A stretch of DNA of 64,000 nt, from NCBI GenBank assembly GCA_963783575.1, contig CAWAOD010000014.1:224001-288000 (forward strand), in the 5' to 3' direction. A program made the position numbers. Positions 33,001-42,000 of the stretch are shown piece after piece. Position 1 is the stretch's first letter. Each line of letters starts with the position of its first letter. The DNA comes from an uncultured Spirochaetota bacterium. GTDB taxonomy: Bacteria; Spirochaetota; Brevinematia; Brevinematales; JAOACQ01.

Positions 33001-36000
33001 ATAATTCAGATGGGCCGATTAAATATTTCCCCCTTTTTCTACCCCGAACCGGTAATTTTATATTTTCTATGCCTTTTTTTGTGAATGAAACAATATAAGC
33101 GGGCTGATGGGTAACTGTTAAATTAAGATCAAGACGGTCTTTAATCTCAATAGCATGAATGGGAATAATCATTTTATTATCAACCGATAATGTGATTTCC
33201 TCATTAATTCCAATAAACACGGCTGCTTCTTCGGTATCTCTACCGAGATATAAATATTTCCTGATAAACCTCACATACAGGTAGTTCAAAATTATCAATA
33301 TTAAAATTCCATAAACGGCTAATTTTAATCCCGGAAAATTGATAAATATGAAATTTATTAATATTAGTATGGCTAAAATAATCAGTTTAGCAGATCTCAT
33401 TTATTGTATCCTAATTTGTTTCGGCATGCTTGTTAAACCTGAATCGGTACGGCAATGTTTGTCAGAATTTTTTCAATGATATTCTCCGGCCTTACATTTT
33501 TCAGCTTTGTTTCCGACCGGATGATTATTCTGTGTTTGAGTATATCCGCGGCGAGAGATTTTATATCTTCGGGAATTACATAATCCCTGCCGTTTATTGC
33601 CGCATTTGCCTGGGCCGCTTTATACAATGCAATGCTTCCTCGTGGAGAGGCTCCAGCAGAATCCCCGGATCATTACGGGTTGCTGCTGTTATTTTAATTA
33701 TATATTCCCTTAATGAATTTTCAACATGAACCTTTGGGATCATAAATTGAATATTCATAATCTTATTGATATCCAATACTGGCAAAATTGTATTTATAGG
33801 ATGGGACTGGTTCTGCATTAAAATTATCTCTTCCTCTTCCTTATTATCGGGATAACCGATTGTAAGACTGACAAAAAATCGGTCAAGCTGTGCTTCGGGA
33901 AGTGGAAAAGTCCCTTCAAACTCAATCGGATTTTCAGTGGCAATTACAAAAAAAAGTTTAGAAAGGGCAAGTGTAATTCCTTCAACTGAAATCTGGTTTT
34001 CTCCCATGGCTTCCAGCATTGCGGATTGGGTTTTTGGCGTTGTGCGGTTTATTTCATCAACTAGAATAATTTCGGAAAAAAGAGGTCCTTTTCTAAATTC
34101 AAATTTTTTAGTATCGGAATTATAGATTGAAAATCCTATTATGTCCGCTGGAAGCAAATCGGGTGTTCCCTGAACTCTTTTAAAAGATGCGTCAATCGAT
34201 TTTGCTATGGCTCTGGCAAGCATTGTTTTGCCAAGGCCGGGTACATCATCTAGAAGAACATGACCTTTGCAAAAAAGAGCAATAAGAGCTTTTTCTATAA
34301 TGTTCCTTTTACCTATAATCACTTTCTCAATGTTTGCCGTCAATTTTGCAGAATAAAGCTGAATTTCCTCAAATTCCATAATTGCTCCTTACTCAAAACT
34401 TTTGACATTACTCAAATTTTAATATACGGTAGAAGTTGGTTTAATGATTTGTTTTTTTGTTATTTTTGACAATATAATAAAATATGATAAAATGTAAGTC
34501 AAAGATTTGGCATTCAGGAGTTCTGGGAAGGATATTTTTGAAAAAAATCATTTTATCCCTCGTATTGGCTTTTATTTCCGGACAGGCTATTGCAGAATCG
34601 AACACAATTAATACTCTTCAAACCAATAAGTTAGAAATCACATTGCAAACAAATCAAACCGGTTCAAACCCAATCGGGGATCTTGACATCAGCCGTAAAG
34701 TGCATCCAATGCTTTATAATTTTATAACAAATACAAGGGTTATAACTAATTTTACTGTCGAGAATGGTATTACGAATTATTTTATTACCAATACCAATAT
34801 TATTTTTATTTTTTACGACCCGTTCATGCCAGTTATAGATATTAATTCGAAAGACGACTTGAAGATTGCTATAGAAAATATGCTTTTTCCAATGGATGAA
34901 ATAATGTTTCAATATCCCGAAACAAAGAATCAAAAAAAAAGACGCTTATCCACTGGAATTAAATTGCTATCGGAAGATGAAATGAATCGGTTTTCGGAAA
35001 ACGCATTTATAAAATATTTGTACAGAAAAACAACTGGAAATCTTGAATTTTCACCTGAAGAGAAAAAACATTTTAATATGGGATTCGAACAATGGGAGAC
35101 CAAAATTATTGTCAGCGGCTGGGTTACTTTAAGCGCAGGTTACGGATCGGTATTCAAGGACGAAGCTTATCAGCAGGCATTACCTGGAATATTCCAGGGG
35201 TTTGATCTAAATCAAACAATGAGAGTTAATGTGGTAGGAAAAATAGGCGATAGAATACAGGTGAACATTAATCATAGTTCCGACAGCCCGGATAATGAGT
35301 ATGAGATAGCTTACAAGGCGCTTCCAACAGACACCGGCATACTTAAAGAACTCAGGGCTGGTAATATATCCCTGAATATACCTCAATCAAGCTATTTCGT
35401 AAAATATGAAGGGACTACCAAAGACAGTTATGGATTGAAGGCAGTCTTTGGCGTTGGGGATGTTGAAGTTCAGACTGTGCTTAACCTGACTCAAAACCAG
35501 AAGGGATATAAAAAATATGTGGGCACAAGACAGCTGGTACAAAGCATTATTCCTGATATAAACTATGTAAAAAGGAAATATTTTTTACTGCCAGATAAAT
35601 CAATAGATAATGGTACCATAGAATTACTGATTTCGACCAATTATTCATATAGCAGGCTTGTAGATGGACAGCCTTATCGTATTATGGTAGAAAGTATCGA
35701 TTATTTTGTTAATAATTCAACAGGAGAATTGACTTTAATTAACAATCTGGATAGAAATAGCAGCCTTATAGTTAGATATACCAGCGGCGGAACATTATTT
35801 ACAACAGATTATAACAGTACAGTTGGTACAGACGATAAAGGCGGCAAATACTTATATCTTTGGCAGCCTACAAAAAACTTTTCACCATACTTACATAATG
35901 GTTATTATAATATAGGATATAGAAATTTCGATCCTACAAGGGGTTTTTCTCTATCTGTAGTTTATTCATCGGATAAATCAAAACTAGCACCATTCCAGTT

Positions 36001-39000: not shown

Positions 39001-42000
39001 TGACCGCTACAGCCAGAGGCTTGAGGGAATTTCTCAGGGGTTTTATTTTCCGGATGAACCTTATGATAAAGGCAATTCGGATTCATATAACATTTCATTT
39101 AGCGGCGATAGACCGATTCCATACTTCAGTTTCTGGCTTAATGACAGGATCGGAAGAGAAGCTACGGCTTTCAGTTATGATTATAATTCTCAGAACCTGC
39201 TTTCAAAATCCGAAAAATATGGATTGGGATGTGATTATAAACTCAATTTATATCCCAAGGAGTTTTTGTTATTGGATTCGATACAGCTAAGGATGAATAG
39301 GGCCATTGATATGAATTATCAAACCATGAACTCAAATATATACTACACAAATGTTTTACCGAAATACGGTGAAATATATTATAACCAACCCGGTAATTAT
39401 TCGGCTTTTTTTAATGGAAACGCCGGTAGGACAAATAGTTTGAATCTTGTTACATATTTTTCAGAAGCCGGATACAACAGCAGTGTAAATTTCTCGGATA
39501 CAATCGGTATCGATTTAATGATGTCTGATATAAAGAATTTTCTCAGGAATTTCATACCAAACCGTTATAATTTTTCGACTACGCTTGTAACCTCCAGAAA
39601 TCTTAGTTCATATGGTCAGAGACTGGATAATTTATTTGGAACATCATTACCGTTAAGACTTTCAGAGTGGAAAATACCATTTATTAAGCAGGATAGTGAC
39701 TTCAGGATTGGCGATATTCAGCTTGGATTTAATTTTGAAAATATTGCAGATTATAATGTTAGAAAAACGACAGATATTATATCTGGCAATGCTAACGAAA
39801 CACTTCAGATTAACCGGTATATCAATCTTGTTTTATTTTATCAGCTTGATTATAGCGGAGAGAGCAATATTACTACTTCCGAGCCGTTTGAAGCCCAATA
39901 CGGCTTTCCTGCGCAACCTCCAAATACTTCAGCTATGACAAAATACAGCCATACAGGCAGGATAAATTTTAATTGGATGATTGATAATATCAAAGATTTG
40001 AATTTAATATTATTCAAGATAAATTTAAGAGGATCTACAGTTAATAATAAAGAAGGTGTTTCTATAACCGGCGACTCAATAGATTATGATGGAAATAATT
40101 TTACTCCATACAGCCAGAAGATATTCGAAATAACTATTGATCACCAAACACAGCTGGCATTATCAGATTATGTAACTGGAAATCTGGATCTTAAATGTTT
40201 GATAAATCAATATGCTGATGTAGCTCCGATAGACAGCGGAAAGCAAATAACCTATTTTCAACCAGGTTTTGGGTTTCAGACTTCAATTGATGTAAGAATC
40301 AAATTTTGAAGCATTCTTTTTGCCTCAGTTTTCAACATTTTATGAAGCTAATCCTGCGAGCTTATCCTTAATCTGAAAATGGTTTATGTTATTAATCACT
40401 TGATTAAAGAATCTTTAAAATTTATAATTATAAAGAATATCACTTCGGTAGTTTCAATACAGATTTTATGTTTAATTTACAAATATATGATCGTAATATG
40501 TATCGTTTTATGATTTTGTTATATGTCTTTATTATTAGTTTTTATGCTGTTGACATTTCATTTTCACATAACTATGAATATGAGAAAAAAGTTAAATGGG
40601 GCATAGTAAATAGGGTTGTTGACGGTGATACTATTGCCGCTATAGTTGAAGGACAATATGAAAAGATACGTCTATTATTCATCGATGCTATGGAAAGCAG
40701 GAATAACCCAAAATTTAGGAGGGATCTGGATTATTATAAAGAAAATAATATAATGATTGAAAAGAAAGATCTTATAGAACTAGGAAAACAGGCGGCATAT
40801 TATTTAAGGTCACGGTTGCCGGCCGGATCTATAATTAAGCTGGAAATTATTGATGGCAAAGAAAGAGACAGATATAACCGTATTCTGGCTCTAATATACT
40901 ATAACAATATTAATATTAATCTTGAACTTGTGGCTAAAGGCTATGCTCGAACCTATTTTATCGGCTATACACCGGAAAAAGAAAAAGATGAATTTCTTAT
41001 AATTGAAAATGAAGCCCGTCATAAAAATCTGGGTATCTGGAGAGTATTGAAATAAAATCAGTCACTCAGTTTGCCAGTCAGTTAGTCAGTAAGTCTGCAA
41101 AAAGAAAGCAAATATTTATGTTATAAACTAATCAAGTAACAGACTAACTGACTAATTAACTAACCAACTAAAAAGGCAAACTAAACGACTAATTGACAAA
41201 TTGTTATCTGTACGGTATATTCATGATTAATATTACAGCCAATTTGATAAGGGAGGTAATTGTGAGGATGGAAAGTTTTTTATTTTCCGGTGTTTTTTGG
41301 GGTGGTATTTTAGTTCTTTGGGGTATTTCTATTATAATAAATACAATGTTTCATGTAAATATTCCAATCTTTAGAATTATACTGGCATTTATATTTGTAT
41401 ATATTGGTTTCAAAATGCTCTGGGGCGGTTATAAATTCGGCAGTAAAGTTGAAAGGAATACGGTTATTTTCAGTGATACCCGAATGAAGTTTAATCCATC
41501 AGATGAAAATAACGAATATAATGTAATTTTTGGGAAGAGTGAACTGGATCTTACCGGGATATCAGTAGCCAATAAAAGTGAGAGAATCAGGGTTAACGTT
41601 ATTTTTGGAGAAGGCATAGTTGAAGTAAATCCCGATACTCCTCTTAAAGTTGATGCAAGTGCTGTATTTGCAGGCGCATTTACTCCCGATGAAACTGTAA
41701 CTTCTTTCGGGCATCATATATATCGTTCACCGAGTTATAAAAAAGATGAAAATTCTCTGGAGATTGAAGCAAATTGTGTATTTGGCGGTGTCCGCATACT
41801 TAATAGAAAATAGCTTTATTCTTTTTTATATTTTTCACAAGAATTATGCGCTAATTGTACAGGAAGCGGCAGTTTATAGTTAGTAATCAGTTTTTTTACA
41901 ATTTCAAGAGAACTTTGAGGAGATACTTTATATCCCGTTGATATGAAAATCGGCTTAATGTTTTCCTTTGATCTCAATACATAACCTACTAATAATCCGT

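Follow-up and report, generated by a model that had tools for sequence, protein, structure and literature searches.

A divergent SprA/Sov homologue widespread in Spirochaetota, a probable outer-membrane translocon of a reduced type IX-like export pathway

We analysed a 64,000-nucleotide stretch of an uncultured Brevinematia genome (contig CAWAOD010000014.1, positions 224,001 to 288,000; hereafter the window) and found that the 1941-aa protein encoded there is a highly divergent homologue, apparently over its full length, of SprA/Sov, the T9SS (type IX secretion system) translocon. Homology and fold, together with a distribution of the family across the phylum, were established; from these and from the company that the gene keeps we propose, with a probability of roughly 0.6, that the barrel serves a reduced T9SS-like export pathway as its outer-membrane translocon. 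A T9SS-like system has not been described before in the phylum Spirochaetota; the gene is unannotated, and the literature that we searched contained no mention of a SprA-like family in spirochaetes.

The ORF (Table 1) was confirmed as a genuine gene; selection probably maintains it, given an undamaged reading frame and 56% identity with the closest relatives. Read by eye, the translation begins with a hydrophobic stretch and an A-x-A site at residues about 19-37, made up of the core IILSLVLAFISG and A-I-A, with E38 next. The segment that follows is poorly defined, with few invariant columns before residue 200 of the family alignment, a block-mean pLDDT of 28-64 in residues 1-100 of the N-part model, and values mostly below 60 as far as about residue 180 of that model. 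Residues about 242-1243 comprise the first barrel strands and inserted beta-sandwich domains, the latter carrying the motifs DSDGDG and EDLNGNGMLD in the jelly-roll region, and the chain ends in F in 37 of 43 orthologues and in I in the remaining six.

Table 1. Coordinates of the SprA/Sov-like gene and its parts within the window
Feature	Position	Strand	Basis or remark
Whole gene, SprA/Sov-like giant outer-membrane protein, 1941 aa	34484..40309	+	Single ORF, ATG start; stop codon included
Probable Sec signal peptide, residues 1-37	34484..34594	+	Translation read by eye
N-terminal region with poor conservation, residues about 38-241	34595..35206	+	Alignment and low-confidence model
N-terminal two thirds with SprA homology, residues about 242-1243	35207..38212	+	hhalign, Foldseek, VIA
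Inserted jelly-roll/CBM-like domains whose loops are Asp-rich (D-x-D-G-D), residues about 703-1243	36590..38212	+	VIA and motifs
C-terminal barrel half, residues 1244-1941	38213..40306	+	AF2 model; about 24-26 long beta strands
Beta-signal-like C-terminal end, ...SIDVRIKF	40283..40306	+	Translation

The NCBIfam scan of the protein returned only TIGR04189 surface_SprA (67.5 bits, E 3.9e-19, in three stretches), below the curated cut-off of 200 bits; genome-wide, the same model matched in two pieces (52.9 and 31.7 bits), both within this gene and none elsewhere in the assembly. Among 24 other spirochaete orthologues, 17 matched it at 73.6-173.6 bits and seven had no match, none of them attaining 200 bits. 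The Pfam scan yielded no match at E ≤ 10 to any family, PF14349 SprA_N included, and 23 distant family members scanned against Pfam likewise lacked SprA_N; the PDB gave no phmmer match at E ≤ 10 and a single chance match (E 1.6) to the 19-row family profile. The homologue search produced 23 proteins, query included: 18 full-length relatives (42-56% identity, 1834-2023 aa), one more at 23%, and three weak SprA or PF14349 matches (E 6.2e-15 to 4.0e-8). At the profile level the relationship was clear, as hhalign aligned the N-terminal part with a Calditrichia SprA at a probability of 100% (E 2.6e-75, 908 columns, SprA residues 188-1310). Sequence comparison did not connect the C-terminal half to SprA (hhalign probability 19%); its profile retrieved 147 proteins from 1.84 billion representatives, mostly full-length at about 1,700-2,335 aa or fragments, and none of the 23 long or weak ones that were scanned had a SprA Pfam family.

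With folding limited to 1200 residues, the protein was modelled as two halves. The four best PDB matches of the N-part AlphaFold model in Foldseek were all SprA chains (E 3.9e-40 for 8gl6_A, then 3.3e-39, 2.7e-34, and 6.4e-27; TMq 0.34-0.41), and the first match to any other chain had an E of 1.8e-9. By VIA, model positions 180-1184 (residues 239-1243) aligned with SprA 168-1511 over 805 residues at 18% identity (Z 15.0, rmsd 14.1). Of the solved structures, SprA stands alone as a match for the N-terminal two thirds as a whole. These results bore out and strengthened the SprA/Sov homology claimed in the genome-wide survey's note, and every number quoted there that could be re-run was reproduced. 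The C-terminal half, for which that note had no model, folded as a large open beta-sheet (pLDDT 89.0, pTM 0.77) whose best Foldseek match was SprA 6h3j_A (E 8.5e-6, TMq 0.38). VIA placed model positions 3-698 of this half (residues 1246-1941) on the C-terminal part of SprA, 6h3i_A 1516-2401 (546 residues, rmsd 9.9); this was the longest alignment and was colinear, although its Z of 12.9 lay below the 15.6 obtained with MtrB over 484 residues. Both half-models are colinear on SprA, the C part picking up where the N part ends, and from DSSP we counted long strands in each of the two models: about 24-26 for the C part and about 10-14 for the N part.

The survey's note described the gene as conserved in Brevinematia; 26 of the 43 genomes of this class have a match, but the description is too narrow, as sampling 401 Spirochaetota genomes showed the family in 143 of them and in 83 of 152 genera. 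In the tree all 43 orthologues formed one clade (SH-like support 99) distinct from six FCB SprA sequences and P0020, and within it they sorted by taxonomic family and class; identity to the window protein fell from 44-56% within its family to 20-25% across the phylum. Vertical inheritance, as proposed earlier, is therefore supported. Similar genes, along with likely carrier and cargo genes, are found in many free-living spirochaetes.

The gene had also been called an orphan, with no PorV shuttle. This stands for the window's own assembly and not for the phylum. PorV_fam (NF033709) exceeded its cut-off in 102 of the 401 genomes, and 98 of these 102 carry the SprA-like family; expressed the other way, the model was over cut-off in 98 of 143 family-bearing genomes and in only 4 of the 258 others, although such cross-tables overstate the association because related genomes are not independent. 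One genus illustrates the pattern: G022 has the pore, a PorV_fam match (99.6 bits), and a CTD match, and all three are lacking from its four congeners (G020, G021, G023, and G024). The PorV_fam model does not single out T9SS: it also matches in Bacteroides thetaiotaomicron, weaker matches occurred in families lacking the pore (42 of 51 genomes in f22), and the spirochaete proteins also match the FadL-like Pfam families UPF0164 and Toluene_X. The two Calditrichia control genomes gave 24 and 29 matches. We concluded that the family co-occurs with PorV/PorQ-family 14-strand barrels.

It also co-occurs with proteins ending in a T9SS type-A CTD (C-terminal domain). Of the 401 genomes, 78 scored above the TIGR04183 cut-off, and the SprA-like family is present in 62 of these; 81 of the 143 family-bearing genomes had no CTD match, including all four of f5 and both of f3, and the two Calditrichia positive controls gave at least 150 matches and 103 matches. 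The spirochaete tails carry the CTD motifs FPNP and G-x-Y. At nine places in eight genomes a CTD match directly adjoined a PorV_fam match, and three genera belonging to the window's class have a gene for a giant CTD protein with a 544-545-aa PorV-like gene directly after it, demonstrating conserved gene pairs in the order cargo, then PorV-like barrel. For one adjacent pair, binding was predicted with a score of 0.85, the best of three controls scoring 0.01; of 157 solved complexes 116 attained this mark, as did 2 of 215 mismatched pairs, at least 86% of the contacts agreed between runs, and partner pLDDT was at least 88. As a PorV and CTD complex has already been solved (PDB 8gl6), the predicted pair speaks for likeness to that complex rather than serving as proof of binding.

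In the window's own genome, whose assembly is 90% complete, the set was minimal: the translocon and two weak CTD candidates, with no PorV-like gene found by NF033709, by tblastn with 10 spirochaete PorV-like proteins, or by an HMM built from these, the latter two matching only a C-terminal extension. The first candidate is a 323-aa protein with a terminal CTD at residues 248-322 that matched TIGR04183 at 29.5-33.6 bits (cut-off 23) and PF18962 at 23.9 bits, below the Pfam threshold of 27; the second has a C-terminal CTD-like domain found with a custom HMM. Judged by TIGR04183 and PF18962, T9SS cargo is weakly represented in this genome. A search for PorU (NF033707), which the survey's note had lacked, showed that the body of this sortase is missing in all 23 spirochaetes searched, with both Calditrichia controls positive (845 and 799 bits, cut-off 420). 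In 19 of the 23, NF033707 matches were confined almost wholly to model positions 870-1095, which form the C-terminal part of the sortase itself; the single exception scored 32 bits, in G053. No match at all was obtained in the remaining four genomes (G026, G032, G127, and G309). We concluded that a PorU-type sortase is absent from the spirochaetes searched. Models for GldK, GldL, GldM, and GldN gave nothing over cut-off in the window's genome or the other spirochaetes, nor in the two Calditrichia genomes with an evident T9SS. GldK-like matches, considered as a motor part, were rejected as plain FGE-sulfatase proteins without gldLMN-like neighbours.

These absences bear on the view that, at least in this organism, the protein is a stand-alone SprA-class export channel operating without carrier, sortase, or motor, the cargo leaving by diffusion or being drawn out as it folds or attaches to something external to the cell. 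We regard this as unlikely. It accords with the missing PorV-like gene and PorU body, with the silent motor models, with an intact and probably selected gene, and with two further genomes (G015 and G031) that have the pore and no PorV_fam match at E ≤ 1e-5. Against it, the assembly is 89.85% complete, the closest pore-bearing relatives (G022, G027, and G026) have PorV_fam matches over cut-off as do most family-bearing genomes, and none of the positive controls for the motor searches worked. Moreover, PMC10994853 states that in Flavobacterium, without energy input, the substrate remains stuck on the translocon.

We prefer the reading in which a reduced T9SS-like pathway would use the barrel as its translocon in the outer membrane. 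One point against it is that, according to PMC10994853, release from SprA requires the motor, and none was found here by searches whose controls also failed. On the mechanism set out in PMC10994853, periplasmic cargo would enter the pore, its CTD might then be held by loops of a PorV-like carrier at the lateral opening of the pore, and the carrier-cargo pair could exit sideways to the outer membrane or cell surface.

It is quite unlikely, in our estimation, that a giant pore or surface structure sharing only its ancestry with SprA has been co-opted for uptake of large substrates, surface-layer anchoring, or jelly-roll adhesion. Such a role would suit the large CBM-like inserts (model positions 644-1184 aligned with CBM11 6r31_A over 148 residues by VIA, Z 12.4, rmsd 2.7), the divergence of the C-terminal half beyond any sequence method's power to link it to SprA, and the lack of a detected sortase or motor and the few CTD candidates in this genome. 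The jelly-roll region, however, lies inside the SprA-aligned stretch and is thus not a new addition, and the co-occurrence with PorV-like and CTD proteins is what an export role predicts.

Around the pore gene lie LptC and an LptA-like gene 2.3 kb downstream (window positions 42601-44161) and glycosyltransferase, GtrA, and ArnT-like genes upstream; in one genus an Omp85 gene is directly upstream (L028 and L018), or upstream with an integrase-domain (rve) ORF between (L017), and within the class neither LpxC nor the pore occurs in family f2, which has 12 genomes. A part for the barrel in outer-membrane or LPS biogenesis, for example as a lipid or glycan insertion conduit or scaffold, is nevertheless very improbable, since no neighbours are conserved across 13 loci and the pore does not track LpxC in the 401 genomes (both 68, pore only 75, LpxC only 142, neither 116), with LpxC but no pore in f15 (75 of 75) and f20 (38 of 38), the pore but no LpxC in f18 and f29, and LpxC in five of five genomes of genus g2 with the pore in one; the tie to an LPS-type envelope drawn in the survey's note accordingly fails.

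Compared with known systems, other large barrels resemble one half of the protein. MtrB (26 strands), LptD, and TonB-dependent receptors match the C-terminal half alone about as well as SprA does by Z-score; they have no match to the N-terminal 1184 residues, and none is colinear over the whole chain. The Calditrichia SprA (P0023 and relatives, 2065 aa, PF14349), from FCB bacteria outside Bacteroidota, is the best sequence bridge; it falls outside the spirochaete clade in the tree, and its genomes, unlike those of the spirochaetes, have the full cargo and attachment set of CTD, PorV_fam, and PorU. With the T9SS shuttle of PorV/PorQ and type-A CTD, pore-bearing spirochaetes share PorV_fam proteins and CTD tails. 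In contrast to T9SS carriers, the spirochaete barrels, none of which was found in the window's genome, resemble FadL-like UPF0164 and are often extended at the C terminus (518-649 aa), one extension having TPR and CBM48-like matches.

The closest counterpart is SprA/Sov of Flavobacterium johnsoniae (6h3i, 6h3j, 8gl6, and 8gl8). The spirochaete protein is about 350-460 residues shorter (1941 aa, against a family model of 2319 positions and solved chains numbered to about 2401), falls below the NCBIfam cut-off, lacks a Pfam SprA_N match, and has a C-terminal half unrecognisable by sequence; its host is a spirochaete in which PorU was not found and GldKLMN gave nothing over cut-off, as in the failed controls. 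SprA forms one closed barrel of 36 strands, capped on the extracellular side and open laterally; of the spirochaete protein's two half-models, the one of the C-terminal roughly 700 residues is a long beta-sheet that aligns with SprA 1516-2401. Both are giant Sec-exported outer-membrane proteins, profile and fold show them to be homologous over the N-terminal roughly 1000 residues at 14-18% identity, and the jelly-roll inserts are common to the two.

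The SprA/Sov-like gene of the window encodes a protein with a probable Sec signal peptide, recognized by eye from a basic stretch, a hydrophobic core and A-I-A before E38, and with the C-terminal end ...IDVRIKF. A Pfam scan of the 1941-aa protein returned no family, even at E ≤ 10, and PDB sequence searches were blank both for the protein itself (phmmer) and for a 19-row family profile. In the NCBIfam scan the sole match was to TIGR04189 (T9SS translocon Sov/SprA), which scored 67.5 bits (E 3.9e-19), its cut-off being 200 bits; no other gene in the whole assembly (4.9 Mb, 18 contigs, 89.85% complete) matched this model. 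The genome-wide survey's note had described a giant ORF, the only gene matched by TIGR04189 and blank in PDB sequence searches, and this description was confirmed; its 23 homologous proteins were recovered as the same set when the homologue search was repeated, and its count of 26 of 43 genomes of the class with a match was reproduced. None of 24 further spirochaete orthologues reached the TIGR04189 cut-off (the best scored 173.6 bits and seven had no match), so that pipelines using TIGR04189 alone would not name them SprA. With Pfam blank and NCBIfam scores under the cut-off, these pore proteins escape current annotation. Below the cut-off (E ≤ 10), TIGR04189 also gave matches in Thermus thermophilus, among 14 control genomes.

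For the comparison with SprA we used 42 orthologues found in Spirochaetota genomes and cut the family into an N part and a C part at residue 1243/1244. When the N-part alignment (residues 60-1243) was compared by hhalign with an alignment of Calditrichia SprA, the probability was 100% (E 2.6e-75) over 908 aligned columns, covering SprA positions 188-1310. The AlphaFold model of the N part had a pLDDT of 80.1, and its best four Foldseek matches in the PDB were all SprA chains (E 3.9e-40, 3.3e-39, 2.7e-34 and 6.4e-27; query TM scores 0.34-0.41), followed by a fifth-ranked match at E 1.8e-9. VIA-align, a structure aligner, placed model residues 180-1184 on SprA 168-1511 with 805 residues aligned, 18% identity, Z 15.0 and rmsd 14.1. 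We regard the homology of the first two thirds of the protein to SprA as proven. For the C part (residues 1244-1941) no sequence link to SprA was detected, the hhalign probability with Calditrichia SprA being 19%. Its model (pLDDT 89.0, pTM 0.77; about 24-26 long strands predicted) had SprA 6h3j_A as top Foldseek match (E 8.5e-6, query TM score 0.38), with TonB-dependent receptors and MtrB just after, and its VIA Z-score was lower with SprA (12.9) than with MtrB (15.6). The VIA matches of the C part were to generic barrels and did not discriminate. The SprA alignment was the longest (546 residues, SprA 1516-2401) and began five residues past the end of the N-part alignment; this colinearity of the modelled structure supports homology of the last third as well. 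Because the N part is proven homologous and the C part is colinear with SprA in structure, full-length homology is very likely. A search of 1.84 billion representatives with the C-part profile yielded 147 proteins, mostly full-length (about 1,700-2,335 aa) or fragments, apparently the pore family alone; a Pfam scan of 23 long or weak relatives among them found no SprA family, 22 having no family at all and one a sub-threshold DUF2460.

The survey's note had described the family as conserved in Brevinematia. We found it across the phylum, in 143 of 401 sampled Spirochaetota genomes and 83 of 152 genera, as open frames of about 1750-2340 aa, and wholly missing from three large families (f15, 0 of 75; f20, 0 of 38; f22, 0 of 51). 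The more distant the orthologue taxonomically, the less identical it was to the window's protein: 44-56% within the same family, 34-47% within the order, 28-31% within the class and 20-25% beyond. In a FastTree tree, which has only a midpoint root and thin FCB sampling, the 43 spirochaete proteins grouped together with support 99, separate from the protein P0020 and from six SprA proteins of the FCB group; Brevinematia formed a clade within it (support 99), and rows clustered by family. Six of the 43 orthologues (L006, L007, L008, L009, L013 and L015, from families f3, f4 and f5) have I as their last residue, where an outer-membrane beta-signal usually has the aromatic F. One genome, G029, also carries a 54-codon fragment that corresponds to the family's last 55 positions, with a TAA stop inside it; lying 18 kb from the intact gene, it may be the remnant of a second copy.

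The same note had tied the pore to an LPS-type envelope, a tie that fails outside the class. We found LpxC in 210 genomes. Of all 401, 68 had both genes, 75 had the pore only, 142 LpxC only and 116 neither, and whole families carry the pore without LpxC or LpxC without the pore. Among 98 flanking ORFs at 13 pore loci there was no recurrent partner, apart from EF-G in two families and, upstream of the pore in one genus, an Omp85 protein with an M23 peptidase. In the window, an LptC gene and a 353-aa ORF, LptA/OstA-like by eye, lie 2.3 kb downstream of the pore gene, separated from it by a nuclease gene, a LiaF-like gene and an endonuclease V gene. Upstream is a divergent operon for a MoxR-type AAA_3 ATPase, a DUF58 protein and a multi-pass membrane protein of 508 aa; the ATPase, at 261 aa, is short for its family, and another ORF overlaps its end. 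The operon resembles a Bat/aerotolerance-type cluster and is not conserved beside the pore in other genomes. Farther upstream, the DinG-like helicase may be split by a frameshift or sequencing error.

Positions of the pore gene, its neighbours and related features (G000, the window's own genome; other G numbers here, sampled Spirochaetota genomes; C numbers, contigs; L numbers, loci cut from genomes)
Feature	Location	Strand	Remarks
SprA/Sov-like ORF	window 34484..40309	+	uninterrupted, 1941 codons + stop
DinG-like helicase	window 23769-26260	+	apparently two overlapping ORFs, 23769-25859 (696 aa) and 25850-26260 (136 aa)
Divergent operon with MoxR-type ATPase	window 30686-34379	-	
LptC gene and 353-aa ORF	window 42601-44161	+	
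CTD-tailed protein	G000 C6, L091 4788-6726	-	stretch with both ORFs: CTD protein of 323 aa, overlapping end of upstream 334-aa lamin-tail-domain ORF
ORF just downstream of CTD-tailed protein	G000 C6, L091 3997-4875	-	293 aa
ORFs matching PorV-like extension, not barrel	G000 C6:81266-82006; C5:334436-334852; C18:43634-45673		
Pore-family fragment	G029:C2:89650-89814	+	
Giant CTD protein, then PorV-like gene (window's class)	G036:C59 (L092 7431-15999); G037:C8 (L098); G038:C33 (L099)		
Further CTD protein, then PorV/PorQ-family barrel	G074:C199; G074:C29; G061:C81; G085:C87; G115:C323; G048:C71; G106:C21; G046:C123		

At the level of the family the pore is not the orphan that it had been called, as PorV-like barrels and proteins with a T9SS type-A C-terminal domain (CTD) co-occur with it. 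Counted over related genomes, which are not independent samples, the PorV/PorQ-type carrier-barrel model NF033709 exceeded its cut-off in 102 of 401 genomes, 98 of them with the pore, and the CTD model TIGR04183 did so in 78, 62 of them with the pore. Of the 258 genomes that lack the pore, only 4 had an NF033709 match over the cut-off, and all four came from families with the pore elsewhere; weaker matches were common in pore-less families. For TIGR04183, two Calditrichia genomes used as positive controls gave at least 150 and 103 matches. One genome of the window's class, G022, had the pore, the barrel and a CTD match; four congeners lacked all three, and LpxC was present in all five. Nine genomes (G046, G061, G074, G085, G096, G115, G106, G270 and G048) each had at least 10 scored CTD matches, and in a first-look prefilter the same lineages showed about 20-90 PorV-family candidates each. 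Note that NF033709 is not specific for T9SS, matching also in Bacteroides thetaiotaomicron, and that the spirochaete PorV-like proteins also match the FadL-like families UPF0164 and Toluene_X; a Brachyspira member is treated as FadL-like in a Brachyspira preprint.

The two kinds of gene are also paired. A CTD match directly adjoined an NF033709 match at nine places in eight genomes, and three genera of the window's class have a PorV-like gene of 544-545 aa directly after the gene for a protein of about 2250-2380 aa with a terminal CTD. Eight aligned CTD tails had FPNP and G-x-Y motifs and a basic end in common. When residues 1-330 of a PorV-like barrel were modelled together with the adjoining CTD, the predicted complex scored 0.85, the best of three controls scoring 0.01; the runs shared at least 86% of contacts and partner pLDDT was at least 88. 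The pair thus passes the mark used for such predictions, a mark that 116 of 157 solved complexes reach and that 2 of 215 mismatched pairs also reach. Because a PorV-CTD complex has already been solved, the prediction speaks for likeness to that complex and not for binding. PorV-like barrels of the window's taxonomic family (L072, L073, L074) are lengthened at the C-terminus by an extension of 150-300 residues; the one scanned, that of L073, gave TPR and CBM48/AMPK-CBM-like matches.

In the window's own genome one protein ends in a CTD, scoring 29.5-33.6 bits with TIGR04183 and, under the threshold, 23.9 bits with Pfam; there is one further C-terminal CTD-like candidate. For the pore gene itself, look-ups listed neither a sequencing run nor an RNA holder. 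No PorV-like barrel was found in this 89.85% complete assembly by three methods (NF033709, tblastn and our own PorV-like HMM), the latter two matching the C-terminal extension domain only. As the closest pore-bearing relatives (G022, G027 and G026) have the barrel, the gene may be missing from the assembly, or it may have been lost or replaced in the lineage. The CTD-tailed protein and the lamin-tail OR­F that it overlaps may belong to a single gene, broken by a frameshift or assembly error. The ORF just downstream, barrel-like in composition, was considered as a hidden carrier. It fell into no family and had no relatives; its sole database match was itself, called as 210 aa. An Atlas lead to 'outer membrane protein' (0.92) had recognition under the reliable level, and the candidate was dropped.

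We searched for the remaining T9SS parts with Calditrichia as controls. The PorU sortase model scored 845 and 799 bits in the two controls. Nineteen of 23 spirochaetes had matches to it, almost only in the last 150-220 positions, the sortase's own C-terminal part, with one exception outside it (a 32-bit match in G053); the other four had none. Since the spirochaete matches were almost confined to this part while the control worked, we conclude that no PorU-type sortase was found in the 23 genomes. The motor and ring models (TIGR03513, TIGR03517, TIGR03523 and TIGR03525, which between them cover GldK, GldL, GldM and GldN, and PF12081, the Pfam first domain of GldM) were run on the window's genome, selected spirochaetes and Calditrichia; no match exceeded the cut-off in spirochaetes, and the models failed equally in Calditrichia, which evidently have a T9SS. 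The control set of well-known genomes for this search apparently held no T9SS organism. PorP/SprF (TIGR03519) was likewise found in none of 25 genomes over the cut-off, controls among them. The two Calditrichia genomes (G401 and G402; L052, L053, L059, L089 and L090) have SprA, PorU, a PorZ-like protein, 24-29 genes of the PorV family and over 100 CTD proteins, and gave no GldL, GldM N-terminal or GldN match with TIGRFAM or Pfam models. The explanation would be either a motor that is very divergent or models that fail outside Bacteroidota. GldK-like matches proved to be ordinary FGE-sulfatase proteins with unrelated neighbours, and a 69-bit GldM C-terminal match in G401 was a lone 259-aa ORF.

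In the published model, as set out in the available text of PMC10994853, the CTD of the substrate binds PorV loops that reach into the SprA pore through the lateral opening; loading is energy-free, and extraction of the carrier-substrate pair requires the motor. Beyond the homology, distribution, co-occurrence and gene pairs that we observed for the pore family, it is because of this model that we assign a translocon role to the spirochaete protein. It would be the outer-membrane translocon of a reduced T9SS-like route, in which the carriers would be PorV-like barrels and the signal the CTD tails, and which would do without sortase-mediated attachment; transport, its direction and the carrier role of the barrels we infer by analogy. 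That the complete set is an SprA-like translocon with PorV-like carriers and CTD cargo, lacking the PorU sortase and the GldKLMN motor and ring, is a tentative reading, to which we give roughly three chances in ten. If this motor-less and sortase-less set is real, the translocon-carrier core would be older than the Bacteroidota/FCB machine or would have evolved separately, and release of carrier and cargo from an SprA pore would be possible without the known rotary motor. Lacking the sortase, and perhaps the motor, the spirochaete system would be useful for asking what the energy input to the translocon does.

T9SS is described as restricted to Bacteroidota or to the FCB superphylum in the available text of the TXSScan paper, the Brachyspira preprint and PMC10994853, and a search of the available full-text papers returned no report of SprA or T9SS in spirochaetes. 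A full-length SprA homologue in a third of the sampled genomes of spirochaetes would extend the range known for this principle of secretion, and the carrier-like barrels and CTD-tailed proteins that co-occur with it would do the same. The fold and the principle are known already; the novelty lies in the phylum, in how far the proteins have diverged and in the reduced set of parts.
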